DNA of 64,000 bases, taken from the NCBI GenBank assembly GCA_965203475.1, contig OZ241890.1:1873448-1937447 (forward strand), given 5' to 3'. Positions 12,920 to 62,439 of this stretch are shown one piece after another (positions within the stretch are counted from its first letter, which is position 1; each line of letters begins with the position of its first letter). Both the position numbers and the translations under genes were made by a program. Below the pieces are notes generated by a model. The model was not told the DNA's origin. It ran no database searches and worked only from the letters and a program-made list of their open reading frames with translations. This DNA is from Gammaproteobacteria bacterium (GTDB taxonomy: Bacteria > Pseudomonadota > Gammaproteobacteria > UBA4575).

Positions 12920-13067
12920 CTTCTAAAACATGAACTAGGTCTGATTTTCCCTATTTGTAGACCCCAATAATCCTCAACTACTAACCATTTATCTACATTG
13001 ATCCAAGCTAAATTCTTAAATCGATTATTATAAGTATTACCTTACACACGGACGTTAAGGGGATATT

Positions 13068-13229
13068 GTGGACAAGGAAGTTAGACAAAAAGTCTCGCCC
13101 ATTTTTGAGAAATTACGCAAGCCCGACCCATCGGTAAAAACCCGTAAAACTGATCGTTTGAATGTCGAGCAAATGCTGCTTGAGCATGAAGAAAACGAAA
13201 TTGAACATTTAAGAAGAATTACCGAGTAA
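13068..13229 (+). CDS. possible small basic/acidic protein (53 aa, GTG start), absent from the ORF track
   Basis: I read this directly from the DNA. An aagggg SD sits 5 nt before the GTG, and the frame is open to the TAA at 13227-13229. No family recognised. Confidence 0.3.
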   Translation: MDKEVRQKVSPIFEKLRKPDPSVKTRKTDRLNVEQMLLEHEENEIEHLRRITE

Positions 13230-29447: not shown

Positions 29448-29474
29448 AATAAATTAGGTTGGTACCAATAAACT

Positions 29475-29595
29475 ACAAACATAAATTGTCGGCTTGCGAC
29501 CCTGAGCGCATGGATGCGCGAATAAGAGTTCCATCAAGGATGATGCAGCAGATTAATATTCTTATAATGCCTGCTAACGACCCAAAGCGGACATT
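29475..29595 (+). repeat. structured 121-nt repeat, copy A1 (full element)
   Basis: Positions 29501-29595 are 95/95 identical to 30202-30296. The ends are imperfectly inverted (aattgtcggcttgcgaccc / gacccaaagcggacatt). Internal hairpins are gcgcat-gg-atgcgc and catca-agga-tgatg. Confidence 0.9.
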
Positions 29596-29622
29596 ATAAA
29601 TTCAAATCAATTTCCTCTAAGA

Positions 29623-30117
29623 ATGCTAAAAAAGATTGAACGATCTAATGCTGACAAAATTTTAAGACGATTTGCTAATCGAATTAAACCAATAGGATTT
29701 ATCAGGACGAAAACAACATTCTTTGTTCGAGATACTGATTTAGTTGCAGAATTTATTCATGTGCATAAATATACTTTTGGACCATACTTCCGCATACATA
29801 CATGTATAAGAGTTCTAAATGATGCGAGAGACTTTATTGCCTTAACTGGCCCAATTGAGAGTGAATTTAAAACAAAGACATATAAATTTGAATTTGATGA
29901 ATCAAAAGAGTCTGTGGAAAATTGTGCTGAGGAAATGGCTAATTTTGTAGAAAATGAATCTGTTCCTTGGTTTAAACGTTGGGAAAATACGAAGTTATTG
30001 CTTGATGATGACTCTCCATTAAATGATCAAGATAAACAGTATTTAACTGATGCGATGCAAGGAAATGTAATAAAAAAATACGTAGAGCAATCAAGAGCAT
30101 TACTGAAACTTCAATGA
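29623..30117 (+). CDS. hypothetical protein (pattern reminiscent of DUF4304)
   Basis: 164-aa ORF lying between repeat copies A1 and A2. Confidence 0.5.
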   Translation: MLKKIERSNADKILRRFANRIKPIGFIRTKTTFFVRDTDLVAEFIHVHKYTFGPYFRIHTCIRVLNDARDFIALTGPIESEFKTKTYKFEFDESKESVENCAEEMANFVENESVPWFKRWENTKLLLDDDSPLNDQDKQYLTDAMQGNVIKKYVEQSRALLKLQ

Positions 30118-30175
30118 TCGCTATTGGCTGAAAGGAGACTTAATTGAGGTTTAAAGAGGTTGGATTCAAAAATTT

Positions 30176-30296
30176 ACAAACTTAAAACGTCAGCTTTCGA
30201 TCCTGAGCGCATGGATGCGCGAATAAGAGTTCCATCAAGGATGATGCAGCAGATTAATATTCTTATAATGCCTGCTAACGACCCAAAGCGGACATT
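30176..30296 (+). repeat. structured 121-nt repeat, copy A2 (full element)
   Basis: See A1. The 5' 26 nt have diverged (acaaac.taaa..gtc.gctt.cga.cc is conserved). The 3' end lies 4 nt before the next ATG. Confidence 0.9.
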
Positions 30297-30300
30297 TTGA

Positions 30301-30672
30301 ATGTTAGACATCTTTTCAAAACCTGTAATCGCATTAATTTTAGTCGCAATAATTTTCATTTTGCTTTTTGGTAAGTATTGGCGAGTACCTATTGATCATG
30401 CGCATTGGAATAAAAATACGAAGCGCGCTACTTACCTCACAATTTTAATAATTCTAACAGGTGTGTTTTTAACTGATATAGATGCAATAAGATCATCAAT
30501 TTACTGTATTGGAGCATTGTCACTATTACTTTATCCATGGTTTAGATGGGATACACCAAGAAGGTATTTTCATGAACTTGCGCCAATAGAATATAATTTA
30601 GTATTTGGTTGGGCTGGGATAATAATTTGTTTATCTTGGGTTATTTTTCGGCTCTACACTGATAATTTTTAG
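30301..30672 (+). CDS. hypothetical membrane protein (4 TM)
   Basis: 123-aa hydrophobic ORF lying between repeat copies A2 and A3. Confidence 0.45.
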   Translation: MLDIFSKPVIALILVAIIFILLFGKYWRVPIDHAHWNKNTKRATYLTILIILTGVFLTDIDAIRSSIYCIGALSLLLYPWFRWDTPRRYFHELAPIEYNLVFGWAGIIICLSWVIFRLYTDNF

Positions 30673-30704
30673 CAAGTATTTCTAGTACAAGAATGGCCAC
30701 TTCT

Positions 30705-30813
30705 GGCCGAAAGTCGACGTTTTAAATTCTTCGAACTTTAACCGGTTGCATCGTCCCTGATGGAACTCTTATTCGCATATCCCTATGCTCACTATTGGCC
30801 GAAAGCAGACATT
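30705..30813 (-). repeat. repeat copy A3: two partial, inverted pieces of the A element
   Basis: 30705-30725 is approximately the reverse complement of the A2 5' end. 30759-30813 is approximately the reverse complement of the A1 left arm (gatggaactcttattcgc is exact), and contains the hairpin gcata-tccc-tatgc. Confidence 0.75.
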
Positions 30814-30831
30814 AGGAATGTAAGCTGTCTA

Positions 30832-31194
30832 CTAATTCTGACTGGGCTCATAGCCCGCTTCTTTCAAACGCTCTTGATATTTTTTCCAATTTGCTTCTTG
30901 ATTAATGCCTAAATCATACAAATGATCCCAGGAAAAAATGCCGGAATCATGATTATCATCAAAGACTAATTGCACGGCGTAGTTCCCCACAGGATTAATG
31001 GCGGTGATATTTACATCTTCCTTGCCTACTTGTAGTACTTCTTGTCCAGGGCCATGGCCTTGTACTTCGGCCGAAGGAGAATGAGTGCGTAAATATTCAC
31101 AAGACAACTCAAAGTGCTGACCATCATCAAATTCAATTTCAAGAAATCTTGATTTTTGGTGTAGTTCAATTTTTGTAGGAACAGCTTTTGCCAA
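30832..31194 (-). CDS. DUF971 (gamma-butyrobetaine hydroxylase-like N-terminal domain) protein
   Basis: 120 aa. The motifs L.I.F.DG....L..EYLR..SPSAE and I.NY A..L.F.D.HDSGI(F/Y)SW..LY are typical of DUF971. Confidence 0.7.
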   Translation of the reverse strand: MAKAVPTKIELHQKSRFLEIEFDDGQHFELSCEYLRTHSPSAEVQGHGPGQEVLQVGKEDVNITAINPVGNYAVQLVFDDNHDSGIFSWDHLYDLGINQEANWKKYQERLKEAGYEPSQN

Positions 31195-58584: not shown

Positions 58585-58706
58585 AATATGGACGAAGTGC
58601 ATGGTTGTGAGCATAGGGAAAAGCGAATATGAGTCGAATCATGAATGATTCGAACAGATTAATCTTTTCTTTATCGAATGTCCGCTAACGATCCAAAGCG
58701 GACATT
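58585..58706 (+). repeat. repeat copy A4 (diverged full element)
   Basis: It aligns with A1 across gagc.cat.gg...gcgaata.gagt..atca.g.atgat...cagattaat...gctaacga.ccaaagcggacatt. It has a local hairpin gaatgtccgc/gcggacattc, and the internal hairpin is replaced by gaatcat-ga-atgattc. Confidence 0.75.
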
Positions 58707-60040: not shown

Positions 60041-60133
60041 AAATTTAATTTCAGAATTGTTAACAAATGACCGATAGTGGAAATTAAGATCATCTAACTT
60101 TAATCTGATACAATATCCTTGTTGTAACTCTTA

Positions 60134-60230
60134 TTCGCGCGGTCGCTCCCGACTTCCTGTCTCCCGCGACACTTGTGCGTCCATGCACATCGTCCTGTGC
60201 TCAGGTCGAAAGCAGACATTTTAAAAGAAA
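60134..60230 (-). repeat. repeat copy A5a (inverted left arm of the A element with an insertion of about 35 nt)
   Basis: gtaactcttattcgcgc...gtgcgtccatgcaca...ctcaggtcgaaagcagacatt is approximately the reverse complement of A1 29484-29533. The hairpin is kept as tgtgc-gtccat-gcaca. Confidence 0.7.
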
Positions 60231-60250
60231 AGAATAAACTGCTCGAATCG

Positions 60251-60277
60251 GCAGAAAATTGTTCCTGCATTTTCTGC
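60251..60277 (-). terminator. hairpin downstream of recG
   Basis: Arms gcagaaaat / attttctgc (9 bp) with a 9-nt loop. On the minus strand the T-rich tract begins only after about 12 nt. Confidence 0.35.
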
Positions 60278-60302
60278 ACTTCCCACTTCCATGTAGGTCG
60301 TC

Positions 60303-60325
60303 CATGATTCGACTCATATTCGCTT
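60303..60325 (-). repeat. repeat fragment A5b
   Basis: A 23-nt exact reverse complement of A4 positions 58621-58643 (aagcgaatatgagtcgaatcatg). Confidence 0.8.
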
Positions 60326-60336
60326 AACCCTTACCC

Positions 60337-62439
60337 TCATACCTGCCCAAACTCTATAGATTTTCCTAACCATCGTTCAATAATTGCATCTACTCGTTGT
60401 AGATCATCGTTAAGTAAAGACTTTGCAGTTTGTTGCACTAAGGGAATTAAATCTTGATCACGCATAATGTTGGCAATGCGCAATTGCAACATGCCGGTTT
60501 GGCGTGTACCTAACACTTCTCCAGGCCCACGAATTTCTAAATCCACCCGTGCAATCTTGAAACCATCATTCGTGTTACGCATGGTGTCGATACGTAGTTT
60601 GGCATTTTCGGTAAGTGGTGGATCAAACACTAATACACACGAACTTTCTTCACTGCCTCGCCCTACGCGACCCCGCAATTGGTGCAACTGTGCCAACCCC
60701 AAACGTTCAGCATTTTCGATAATCATTAAACTCGCATTTGGAACATCTACGCCTACTTCAATTACCGTCGTTGCCACTAACAAATCAATTTTTCGGTTCG
60801 AAAACTGCTGCATTACAGCATCTTTTTCTTTACCTTTCATACGGCCATGTACCAGGCCCACTTTCACACCACGTAATAACTGGCTTAATTCACGATAAAC
60901 ATCTTCTGCTGCCTGACATTGCATCGCTTCTGACTCTTCTACCAAGGTGCACACCCAATAGGCCTGTTGTCCATTTCGACAAGCTTTGGCTACACGCTCT
61001 ACTACTTCATTTCTGCGTTCCATAGGAATGGCAATGGTTGTAATGGGTTTGCGCCCGGGAGGCAATTCATCCACCACAGAATAATCAAGATCCGCATAGG
61101 CTGTCATGGCCAAGGTTCTTGGAATAGGTGTTGCCGTCATAATAAGTTGGTGCGGGTGAAATTCATTTTGAATACCTTTTTCACGTAAGGCTAAACGTTG
61201 ATGCACACCAAAACGATGTTGTTCATCGATTACCACTAAAGCTAAATTCTTAAATTCGACACCTTGTTGAAACAAAGCATGGGTGCCAACGATAGCATTC
61301 GCGGTGCCAGTTGCAATGAGCGCTTTCATTTCATTACTTTTGCTTGCCGTAAGCTTGCCGGACAACCAGGCTAGACGAATACCATAGGGTTCTAACCAAT
61401 TCGAAAAATTCCGCAAATGTTGTTCGGCTAAAATTTCAGTAGGTGCCATGACAACAGCCTGATAACCGGCTTCAATCACTTGCATACAAGCGGCAATGGC
61501 AATTAACGTTTTCCCGCTACCTACATCACCTTGCACCAGTCGCAACATGGGATATTCATTTTCTAAATCTTCAAAAATCGTTTGAATTACTCTTTTCTGT
61601 GCACCCGTTAAGTCAAATGCCAAATCATTACCAAGTTGATTAAATAATTTTCCTTCGACTTGTACCTCTACTGCTTGATGTTTTTGTGCTTGCAACCGAA
61701 GTTTGGATAAACTTAATTGTTGAGCTAATAATTCTTCAAAGGCTAAACGACGCTGCATGGCATGTTTGCCTTCCGCCAACGCTTCGGTATCAGCTTCAGG
61801 AGGTGGGCGATGAACAAACTTGAGCGCATCTTTAATAGACACGCGTTGCCCATCAATCTCGGGCGGCATGGGAAGCAAATCCAACTCAGGTATGTTCTCA
61901 CTGTCTACCCACTTCAATGCTTGGGAAGTCAAACGTCGTAAGCTGAGTTGATGCAATCCTTCAGTTGTGGCGTAAATAGGTGTGAGGTGATCTTCAACTT
62001 TGGGAACAGCATCTTTATCTTGTATTTCATATTCAGGATGCACCATTTCAGGCCCTTTAATACCTTGGCGAATTTCACCAAAACATCGAATGGAAACACC
62101 ACGTGCCAGACTTTCACGCTGACTATTATTAAAGTAAAAAAAACGTAACAACACACGGCCGGTTCCATCTTCCACACTTACCAATAGCATACGACGTTTT
62201 CGGTATACCACCTCACTATGTTCCACAGTGCCTATCACTACACATTCATCACCAGGACGTAATGCCGCAACGGAACGTATACGTGTGCGATCCTGATAGC
62301 GAATTGGTAAATGAAAAAGCAAATCCTGCAAGGTGAAAATCTGCAGGCGTTGCAAACGCTCAGCAACTTTCGGCCCAACACCTTTTAAGGTTTCAACCGA
62401 GGGAAAAGCTTTATTTTGCAAAGAAACAGTAGGAACCAC
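60337..62439 (-). CDS. recG: ATP-dependent DNA helicase RecG
   Basis: 700 aa with a wedge domain and SF2 helicase motifs GDVGSGKT, DEQHRFG and TATPIPRT. Confidence 0.95.
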   Translation of the reverse strand: MVPTVSLQNKAFPSVETLKGVGPKVAERLQRLQIFTLQDLLFHLPIRYQDRTRIRSVAALRPGDECVVIGTVEHSEVVYRKRRMLLVSVEDGTGRVLLRFFYFNNSQRESLARGVSIRCFGEIRQGIKGPEMVHPEYEIQDKDAVPKVEDHLTPIYATTEGLHQLSLRRLTSQALKWVDSENIPELDLLPMPPEIDGQRVSIKDALKFVHRPPPEADTEALAEGKHAMQRRLAFEELLAQQLSLSKLRLQAQKHQAVEVQVEGKLFNQLGNDLAFDLTGAQKRVIQTIFEDLENEYPMLRLVQGDVGSGKTLIAIAACMQVIEAGYQAVVMAPTEILAEQHLRNFSNWLEPYGIRLAWLSGKLTASKSNEMKALIATGTANAIVGTHALFQQGVEFKNLALVVIDEQHRFGVHQRLALREKGIQNEFHPHQLIMTATPIPRTLAMTAYADLDYSVVDELPPGRKPITTIAIPMERRNEVVERVAKACRNGQQAYWVCTLVEESEAMQCQAAEDVYRELSQLLRGVKVGLVHGRMKGKEKDAVMQQFSNRKIDLLVATTVIEVGVDVPNASLMIIENAERLGLAQLHQLRGRVGRGSEESSCVLVFDPPLTENAKLRIDTMRNTNDGFKIARVDLEIRGPGEVLGTRQTGMLQLRIANIMRDQDLIPLVQQTAKSLLNDDLQRVDAIIERWLGKSIEFGQV

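Follow-up and report, generated by a model that had tools for sequence, protein, structure and literature searches.

What reads the short hairpins of a repeat that stands between the genes of an uncultured low-GC (~40%) gammaproteobacterium, and in which form, folded DNA or RNA? The question is raised by positions 29475-29595 of a 64-kb stretch of DNA (hereafter the window, to which all positions refer unless a relative's locus is named). A first-pass annotation had described there a repeat family with hairpins conserved by compensatory change and had taken it for an element recognised as a folded single strand, in the manner of attC sites, REP/RAYT substrates or the ends of IS200/IS605 elements. 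In our analysis, the repeat resolves into two families, a core of ~60 nt and a separate REP-like palindrome of 30 nt, and both internal hairpins of the core are confirmed to be maintained by compensatory change. Judged by sequence and predicted fold, the loops, stems and spacing of the core match the high-affinity RNA site of CsrA/RsmE. With about even confidence, we favour the reading that the core is a module of 3' untranslated region (3' UTR) or intercistronic RNA which binds a CsrA dimer and has spread via the REP-like palindrome. Because the hairpins covary and display GGA loops, they suggest an RNA in gene tails rather than a folded-DNA recombination site.

Besides the window, the comparison data comprised 8-kb pieces of loci from relatives (given with L-numbers). 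Nhmmer and then a covariance model (R1) recovered the core family from a subset of the palindrome loci; altogether, 84 copies come from 15 assemblies, all belonging to a single clade of uncultured low-GC Gammaproteobacteria. In a MAFFT alignment of 34 copies, 53 cells of the paired columns were doubly changed compared with 20.2±3.2 after shuffling (0/500), and slid controls reached at most 14. The signal grew with the sample: among 83 distinct copies we counted 120 doubly changed cells against 48.9±4.9 after shuffling (0/500), with slid controls at or below 29. RNAalifold, run unguided, returned the same two '((((......))))' hairpins, each of 4 bp with a 6-nt loop. The covariation proposed from the few copies in the window thus holds for the whole family. 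It can also be followed at a single site, as L118 (5623-5683) and L139 (5183-5242), which come from two separate MAGs (metagenome-assembled genomes), carry a core at the orthologous position after a gene for a glcD-like FAD-linked oxidase (76% amino acid identity); here the stems of hairpin 2 are wholly different (GCGUC/GACGC and ACAAC/GUUGU) and the fold is kept. L118 carries two more cores in tandem.

The loops tell what is kept beyond the fold. Both read C-A-N-G-G-A-N-G, with the A and the GGA ~95% conserved and both N positions nearly free. In hairpin 1, the A is present in 63 of 66 copies and the three GGA letters in 64, 64 and 63 of them; in hairpin 2, the corresponding GGA counts are 79, 78 and 78 of 81. 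A core-specific pattern scan yielded 30 loci, all of the same clade, that were selected to contain GGA; unbiased frequencies were taken from the palindrome-selected set of 34 copies, in which GGA occurs in 31/34 (hairpin 1) and 30/34 (hairpin 2). In 57 of 68 copies, GGA follows GGA at a distance of 26 nt, the strand bias within cores is strong (163 GGA versus 21 TCC), and long core variants add further GGA-loop hairpins. For CsrA, in vitro selection (SELEX) gave the consensus RUACARGGAUGU, with an ANGGAN hexaloop on a stem of at most 4 bp, and one dimer bridges two sites that are 10-63 nt apart (PMC7652899). The GGA of the core loops fits (A/U)CANGGANG(U/A), with at least two sites within bridging distance. 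Since only the A and the GGA are fixed, while the N positions are free and the stems are fully turned over, selection on the loop letters explains this pattern better than shared descent.

The window contains six copies of the repeat in two clusters, at 29.5-30.8 kb and at 58.6-60.3 kb. Searched with the covariance model, the 64 kb gave five matches (E 1e-10 to 2e-19), one weak match and no others; the copies named by the first-pass annotation are real. The parts of each copy are as follows.

29484-29595, + strand: copy A1, the one copy in the interval 29475-29595
29456-29483, + strand: leader module of A1 (AGGTTGG..ACAAACATA); the same module precedes many solitary palindromes in relatives
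29484-29501, + strand: left half of A1 (AATTGTCGGCTTGCGACC), left arm and loop remaining from an earlier palindrome
29502-29561, + strand: core of A1 (R1 score 74.9 bits, E 5e-19)
29506-29519, + strand: hairpin 1 of A1, loop UGGA, then the linker GAAUAAGAGU
29532-29545, + strand: hairpin 2 of A1, loop AGGA, then the tail CAGAUUAA
29566-29595, + strand: right-hand palindrome of A1, AATGCCTGCTAACGACCCAAAGCGGACATT, a REP-like hairpin with a 10-nt loop
30185-30296, + strand: copy A2
30157-30202, + strand: leader and left half of A2 (AACGTCAGCTTTCGATC)
30203-30262, + strand: core of A2, same sequence as the A1 core
30267-30296, + strand: right-hand palindrome of A2, then TTTTG, then the start codon of the open reading frame (ORF) at 30301
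30692-30813, - strand: copy A3, inverted
30793-30813, - strand: left half of A3 (AATGTCTGCTTTCGGCCAATA on the - strand)
30733-30792, - strand: core of A3 (76.1 bits), hairpins GCAUA-GGGA-UAUGC and CAUC-AGGGAC-GAUG
30692-30721, - strand: 3' palindrome of A3 (AACGTCGACTTTCGGCCAGAAGTGGCCATT on the - strand), from the same hairpin family but with a variant loop
29499-30832, no strand: strain-variable block of 1334 bp with the A1 core, ORF 29623-30117, A2, ORF 30301-30672 and A3
58607-58706, + strand: copy A4
58607-58667, + strand: core of A4, no left half, beginning 32 nt past the stop codon of a DUF3050 gene
58677-58706, + strand: right-hand palindrome of A4, AATGTCCGCTAACGATCCAAAGCGGACATT, a perfect 10-bp stem
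60066-60220, - strand: copy A5a, inverted
60204-60220, - strand: left half of A5a (AATGTCTGCTTTCGACC on the - strand)
60095-60203, - strand: long core of A5a, three extra GGA hairpins first, then linker and hairpin 2
60066-60085, - strand: right half of the palindrome of A5a, degenerate (..TTTCCACTATCGGTCATT on the - strand)
60240-60339, - strand: copy A5b, inverted; the core spans the copy and opens with TGAGGG, in which the recG stop codon lies

A2 lies 701 bp downstream of A1 and the two are 90% identical over 146 nt. The hairpins that had been named are present, with GCGCA/TGCGC and CATCA/TGATG in A1 and A2, GCATA/TATGC in A3 and GAATCAT/ATGATTC in A4. Likewise, the common ending reported for five copies is there: all five occurrences of AAAGCRGACATT are on the + strand, at the five ends in question, against 1.26 expected by chance, and 1/100 shuffles reaches five. 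The 3' palindrome of A3 has an inner GGCC stem followed by ATTCTT. In A5a, where the core is flanked by the left and the right half of a palindrome, the extra hairpins are GCACA-GGACGA-UGUGC, GUGCA-UGGA-CGCAC and GUCGC..GGGAGACAGGAAGUCGGGA..GCGAC, and hairpin 2 is ACAA-CAAGGAUA-UUGU; long cores of this type also occur in L016, L075, L095, L098 and L127. Hairpin 2 of A5b is enlarged by nested GGA-loop hairpins (CCUAC-AUGGAA-GUGGG and CAGAAAAU-GCAGGAACA-AUUUUCUG). Straight after the recG stop codon, the tract formed by A5b and A5a (60070-60340, - strand) contains ten GGA in 271 nt, several of them in predicted loops, and resembles a multi-site RNA of the Rsm/CsrB type built of nested and tandem repeat modules.

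The position of the cores relative to genes points to transcription from the upstream gene. Core starts concentrate 0-60 nt past a co-oriented stop codon. Convergent intergenic regions contain 23 copies and divergent ones 3, and in tandem intergenic regions 16 cores are co-oriented and 6 anti-oriented (p = 0.05). G·T pairs exceed A·C pairs in the stems (37 to 25), which also speaks for RNA. A consensus scan found no promoter-like site at A1, A2 or A3, compared with 6.8 expected in shuffles, and neither a sigma-70-like promoter nor a GacA or LetA box adjoins any copy in the window. A promoter or box of its own was thus rejected for the core, and any transcription would have to come from the upstream gene. 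We also rejected a protein-coding role: a frame of 47 codons is open in A1 and A2, and the commoner linker AUAUGAG brings a TGA into this only open frame. In at least seven copies, the TGA at the start of the core (G-TGA-GC) is itself the stop codon of the upstream ORF (recG at 60337-60339, L087, L080, L073, L092, L043 and others). A variant of the palindrome, AATGAC, provides its TGA as upstream stop codon in seven further palindrome copies; because these triplets serve as stop codons, insertion has therefore reshaped protein C-termini.

The second family, the palindrome, is a hairpin of ~30 nt with a 10-nt loop, AATGWCYGCT-AACGACCCAA-AGCGGACATT, and has the foot AATG / CATT in 141 copies. 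Scanning one genome per species with its 24-nt centre listed at least 114 loci, and among the matches listed many palindromes per genome were found in one clade of low-GC Gamma or 'Thiotrichales' MAGs, and single exact copies in Lysobacter and Polynucleobacter isolates as well as in MAGs of Caulobacteraceae, Xanthobacteraceae, Woeseiaceae and Nitrospina. It is usually solitary and directly 3' of a gene; the 2.76-Mb chromosome OZ252002.1 has at least 17 palindrome loci, with no core in the loci sampled. In tandem intergenic regions, 51 palindromes are co-oriented with the genes versus 6 in the opposite orientation. Genes of many kinds precede the palindromes; the set of 95 includes groEL, lptF/G and signal peptidase as well as one DDE transposase, and we therefore rejected an association with a specific type of gene cassette. 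An intrinsic terminator was rejected as well, since a T-run follows the right-hand palindrome in only 10 of 140 cases, in agreement with the first-pass annotation, which had argued against a plain terminator. No large insertion sequence (IS) was found at the same palindrome position in the sampled loci, and phage collections gave no palindrome-like match.

Several side observations concern the palindrome and its leader. The 24-mer YGCTAACGANCCAAAGCRRRCATT is identical across genomes of 38-67% GC in Alpha-, Beta- and Gammaproteobacteria, with Lysobacter niastensis, L. dokdonensis and Polynucleobacter meluiroseus among the isolates; such identity across classes is unusual for a REP-like element. 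Weak, unannotated palindrome-like matches occur on plasmids of Bosea, Halomonas, Massilia and Pantoea. In the P. meluiroseus isolate and a MAG (L060 644-1575, L120 7594-7882), the DNA downstream of the palindrome matches and the upstream DNA shown differs; the matching part holds a terminator-like hairpin, AACCACTCCGCAGAGTGGTT, and L060 also has tandemly repeated units of ~120-300 nt there. The leaders (29456-29483, 30157-30184; L010, L034, L037, L061, L070, L085 and others) contain a Shine-Dalgarno-like AGGGGA or AGGAGA followed, after ~7 nt, by TTG, from which a mini-ORF passes through the palindrome (M-E-S/T-...-M-T/S-A-N-D-P-K-R-T-F/L). Of 25 leaders, 22 have it in frame, and it is open in every one of these 22; for the other two frames the counts are 8 and 0 of 25. 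In 73% of copies, ..ACATT is followed by C or T, at a synonymous position of the Phe codon. The palindrome may be translated as the end of a mini-ORF that closes with ..ANDPKRTF.

In the 84 copies, the two families meet in a regular way. On the left, the palindrome contributes its left arm and loop, ending in ..CCCAAAG(T) or ..CCAAT(T)A; next are GTGAGC and the remainder of the core, and 3' of the core a spacer or leader is followed by a complete palindrome of the same loop type. The left arm is present in only ~15-20 of the 37 evaluable copies, and the others start at a stop codon or overlap it. The left half pairs with the right arm at 8.45 of 10 positions versus 9.15 of 10 for the palindrome's own left arm, and in the minimum-free-energy fold of A1 the right-hand palindrome pairs with itself. 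Of the fold initially proposed for each full copy, the two internal hairpins therefore stand, whereas the paired and bulged termini that were thought to enclose them are halves of a separate palindrome; the enclosing stem arises as a side effect of insertion and is not constant among copies. Nothing is duplicated except ~21 nt, namely the palindrome's left arm with its loop, and an inverted pair of left half and right arm is present in about half of the copies. Neither terminal inverted repeats of the core's own nor a short target duplication were seen, and a constant flanking tetranucleotide is absent at the junctions of the 84 copies. In L001 (3660-3700, - strand; MAG CBDCUI01) another palindromic repeat, CATTGCGAGGAGCGTAGCGACGAAGCAATCC, stands 3' of the core in place of the AATGTCCGCT-type palindrome; the core can thus join other repeat families too.

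Variation between strains caught one such site in both states. In a sister strain (L007; flanks of 98-99% identical DNA, identical HslU), 6 nt stand in place of the 1334-bp block, and the site consists of the leader and an intact short palindrome, AATTGTCGGCTGCGGACAATT. As L007 has the intact palindrome there, what had been described as the 'L terminus' of A1 is the left arm of a pre-existing palindrome. The L007 contig has ~1.2x coverage, at which the large deletion is reliable and single-base details are not. Positions 29499-30832 are a strain-variable hot-spot bounded by repeats, and their two co-oriented ORFs (29623-30117, 164 amino acids; 30301-30672, 123 amino acids) have no Pfam match. 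In L008, whose HslU is 91% identical, five different small ORFs lie there, between a GBBH-like gene and ubiE. The genes of the window include ubiE/ubiB, hslVU, recG and spoT, and no tRNA or tmRNA was found within it. Its HslU is 85-91% identical to that of many MAGs labelled 'Gammaproteobacteria bacterium'. Exact-protein look-ups returned no record for ORF 29623-30117 or for the P460 gene, and a literature search with the sequence string matched unrelated primers only.

Taken as a mechanism, the palindrome would be a landing site, found after many kinds of genes, to which the core becomes joined always at one point, immediately ahead of the right arm. What remains on the other side, the left arm with the loop, would form the 'L terminus', and a complete palindrome of the same loop type would stand 3' of the core. 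Transcribed in sense within the 3' UTR of the upstream gene or in intercistronic RNA, the core would offer its two loops to the two RNA-binding faces of one CsrA/RsmA dimer, which would clamp them. Single modules may put the flanking mRNA under CsrA control via stability or termination, and clustered modules, for example those after recG or the triple tandems in relatives, could titrate CsrA as RsmY/RsmZ/CsrB do. A mobilisation step at the DNA level is real, and a structure-guided insertion of DNA at the palindrome is plausible. The idea of a folded single strand may therefore hold for the spread via the palindrome, although not for the covariation of the core hairpins. We are doubtful about a bolder version, in which the core would be a mobile post-transcriptional module that copies itself into the palindrome and remakes it on the 3' side, so that insertion can be serial, thereby scattering dual CsrA sites through gene tails, with the effect of rewiring the Csr regulon or of creating a dispersed sponge for CsrA, and in which the palindrome would be an unrecognised cross-class element.

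Several points weigh against a CsrA-binding RNA module. A csrA gene was found neither in the window nor in the clade's fetched loci by tblastn with an approximate E. coli CsrA query, the sole match being in an alphaproteobacterial MAG; Gammaproteobacteria generally have csrA, and this clade presumably does too. The Rfam models of RsmY, RsmZ, CsrB, CsrC, RsmX and TwoAYGGAY did not match either cluster at E <= 10. The lack of an adjoining promoter, GacA box or LetA box counts here as well, the orientation bias of the cores (16:6) is only borderline, and in A4 the GGA of hairpin 2 is lost (UCGAAUCAU-GA-AUGAUUCGA). Moreover, the element as a whole has an ordinary stability (z = -0.31 on the + and -0.95 on the - strand; overall range -0.3 to -1.1, none significant); the structural evidence is evolutionary and not thermodynamic. 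The asymmetry of G·T over A·C in the stems (37 versus 25) is weak, and the linker GCGAAUAWGAGU and the tail GAUUARAGU are conserved too, for which CsrA binding alone offers no explanation. One further sequence in the window touches on this regulatory system: at 13029-13090, the palindrome TATAAGTATTACCTTACA is like a GacA box (1 mismatch to TGTAAGN6CTTACA), and behind it lie four GGA within 45 nt and an ORF of ~55 amino acids that begins with GTG. This may be a Gac/Csr-controlled leader or chance.

The closest rival to a CsrA site is the one from which the question started. The hairpins could be a substrate of single-stranded DNA (ssDNA) transposition or recombination, read by an HUH enzyme (RAYT or IS200/IS605-type) or by an IS110/IS1111-type enzyme encoded elsewhere that moves the module into palindromes. 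The element has clearly moved or disappeared between strains (an indel of 1334 bp whose end falls inside a palindrome), the junction is fixed with matching loop types on both sides, neither own terminal inverted repeats nor a short target duplication were seen, and the copies are numerous within one clade (84 in 15 assemblies), all of which such an enzyme would account for; in Coxiella, IS1111 prefers the short REP-like forms of QMITE2 (PMC5896051). Nevertheless, we consider it unlikely for the hairpins. The expected linked recombinase or nuclease gene is not seen near the copies: the only candidate close to those in the window is an xerC-like gene in a housekeeping position, and the diverse upstream genes include the one DDE transposase mentioned above. 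An upstream palindrome half is missing from about half of the evaluable cores. Copies of either orientation are found where the GC skew is uniform, contrary to what HUH insertion dependent on the lagging strand would give. The conserved letters, displayed on one strand as A-N-GGA-N with free N positions, are exactly those of the CsrA RNA site, the cores lie mostly in sense in gene tails, and the copy at the orthologous site keeps its fold after long divergence with changed stems.

Two other explanations accept a role as RNA or as a 3'-end repeat. The copies might be independent small RNA genes of the RsmY/RsmZ type with a promoter in the leader and the palindrome as 3' end, in line with the order of leader, left half, core and palindrome in A1 and A2, the TTTTG after the A2 palindrome, and the tandem cores of L118 and L003, which resemble multi-hairpin sponge RNAs. 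This we hold to be very unlikely, given the failed search for promoters at A1-A3 and for GacA or LetA boxes nearby, the rarity of T-runs after the palindrome, and the many cores that lie 0-3 nt from an upstream stop codon or overlap it, leaving no room for a promoter. Rather improbable, too, is a selfish or generic 3'-end repeat whose hairpins protect mRNA ends or aid propagation and whose GGA derives from the founder without being read by CsrA. Its location at gene 3' ends is like that of REP, ERIC and QMITE (PMC5896051), the conserved linker and tail suggest recent common descent, and the thermodynamic stability is ordinary. However, common descent would hardly fix the loop A and GGA alone next to nearly free N positions and wholly turned-over stems, stems of 4 bp are poor barriers to exonucleases, and the extra hairpins of the long variants carry GGA again.

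If the core does bind CsrA, it would show how a global post-transcriptional regulon can expand by transposition-like spread and not by point mutation. CsrA sponges and CsrA-regulated leaders are known as individual genes, and a dispersed repeat with a complete high-affinity dual site would differ from these. A clade represented only by metagenomes would also gain an RNA-protein pair that can be tested experimentally. The analysis separates a clade-specific structured core from a far more widespread palindrome, and the covariance model together with the junction rule can be applied to whole genomes.

How does the repeat compare with known systems? Judged by the window and the fetched pieces of relatives, the defining features of attC sites, RAYT-REP systems and IS200/IS605 ends are lacking, and no known Rfam family covers the core: there was no match, either at the gathering score for the whole window or at E <= 10 for both clusters, apart from chance snoRNA and miRNA matches. 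The statement of the first-pass annotation that neither a GTAG head nor integron core sites are evident is borne out. Like attC sites and CALIN arrays, the imperfect palindromes follow small co-oriented ORFs in arrays (29.0-30.8 kb; L061), and gene content at the locus varies between strains. An integron was nevertheless rejected, as the R''/R' sites (RYYYAAC / GTTRRRY) are absent, no IntI gene was seen and palindromes follow housekeeping genes. The repeat ends AATGTC...GACATT, and the sole GTTRRRY nearby (GTTAGAC, 30303) lies within the first codons, ATG TTA GAC, of ORF 30301-30672. A Xer/dif-type module was also set aside: no likeness to the dif consensus (11-6-11 XerC/XerD arms) was noticed, with no search aimed at it, and the only tyrosine-recombinase gene nearby is the xerC-like one, three genes away in a dapF-DUF484-xerC order typical of housekeeping. 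Unlike in IS200/IS605 ends or PATE, the internal hairpins are adjacent and central instead of subterminal, and no linked transposase was seen; IS605-orfB and HEARO RNA gave no Rfam match in the window searches.

With REP/BIME sequences of Enterobacteria and Pseudomonas, the palindrome shares its short imperfect symmetry, the many extragenic copies at gene 3' ends, mosaic structures and the property of a hot-spot for rearrangement and insertion. It differs in having no GTAG or GTGG head and in its strong bias in gene orientation (51 to 6), and no RAYT (Y1 HUH) gene was seen in the window or in the 8-kb pieces of relatives. REPs are species-specific, and the palindrome 24-mer instead spans three proteobacterial classes. 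By its description, QMITE2 of Coxiella burnetii is similar as well: in it, full-length and short REP-like forms likewise coexist, overlap gene 3' ends and act as insertion hot-spots. Its short forms are hot-spots for IS1111, it has relatives in distant Alphaproteobacteria and it is a source of small RNAs (PMC5896051). Unlike QMITE2, which has terminal inverted repeats and direct repeats of 7-9 bp, the present repeat shows neither, and no GGA-loop module is described for QMITE2.

On the RNA side, the core resembles RsmY/RsmZ/CsrB and CbsR12 of Coxiella in its ANGGA/AGGA hairpins of variable number (bioRxiv 10.1101/679134, PMC7652899). In contrast to RsmY/RsmZ/CsrB, no promoter, GacA/LetA box or intrinsic terminator of its own was found, nor any Rfam match, and where those RNAs have 1-8 dedicated genes the core is scattered in dozens of copies. 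The nearest architecture is that of TwoAYGGAY (RF01731) and Bacillaceae-1, which consist of two hairpins with CsrA motifs and are predicted to be CsrA-sequestering RNAs (PMC4333381, PMC2864571); the core, too, has two adjacent short GGA-loop hairpins. Unlike TwoAYGGAY, whose Rfam model gives no match even with a limit of E <= 10, the core has U, A or G as the first N of its loop and not only Y, and its many scattered copies stand in the tails of genes, joined to a REP-like palindrome.

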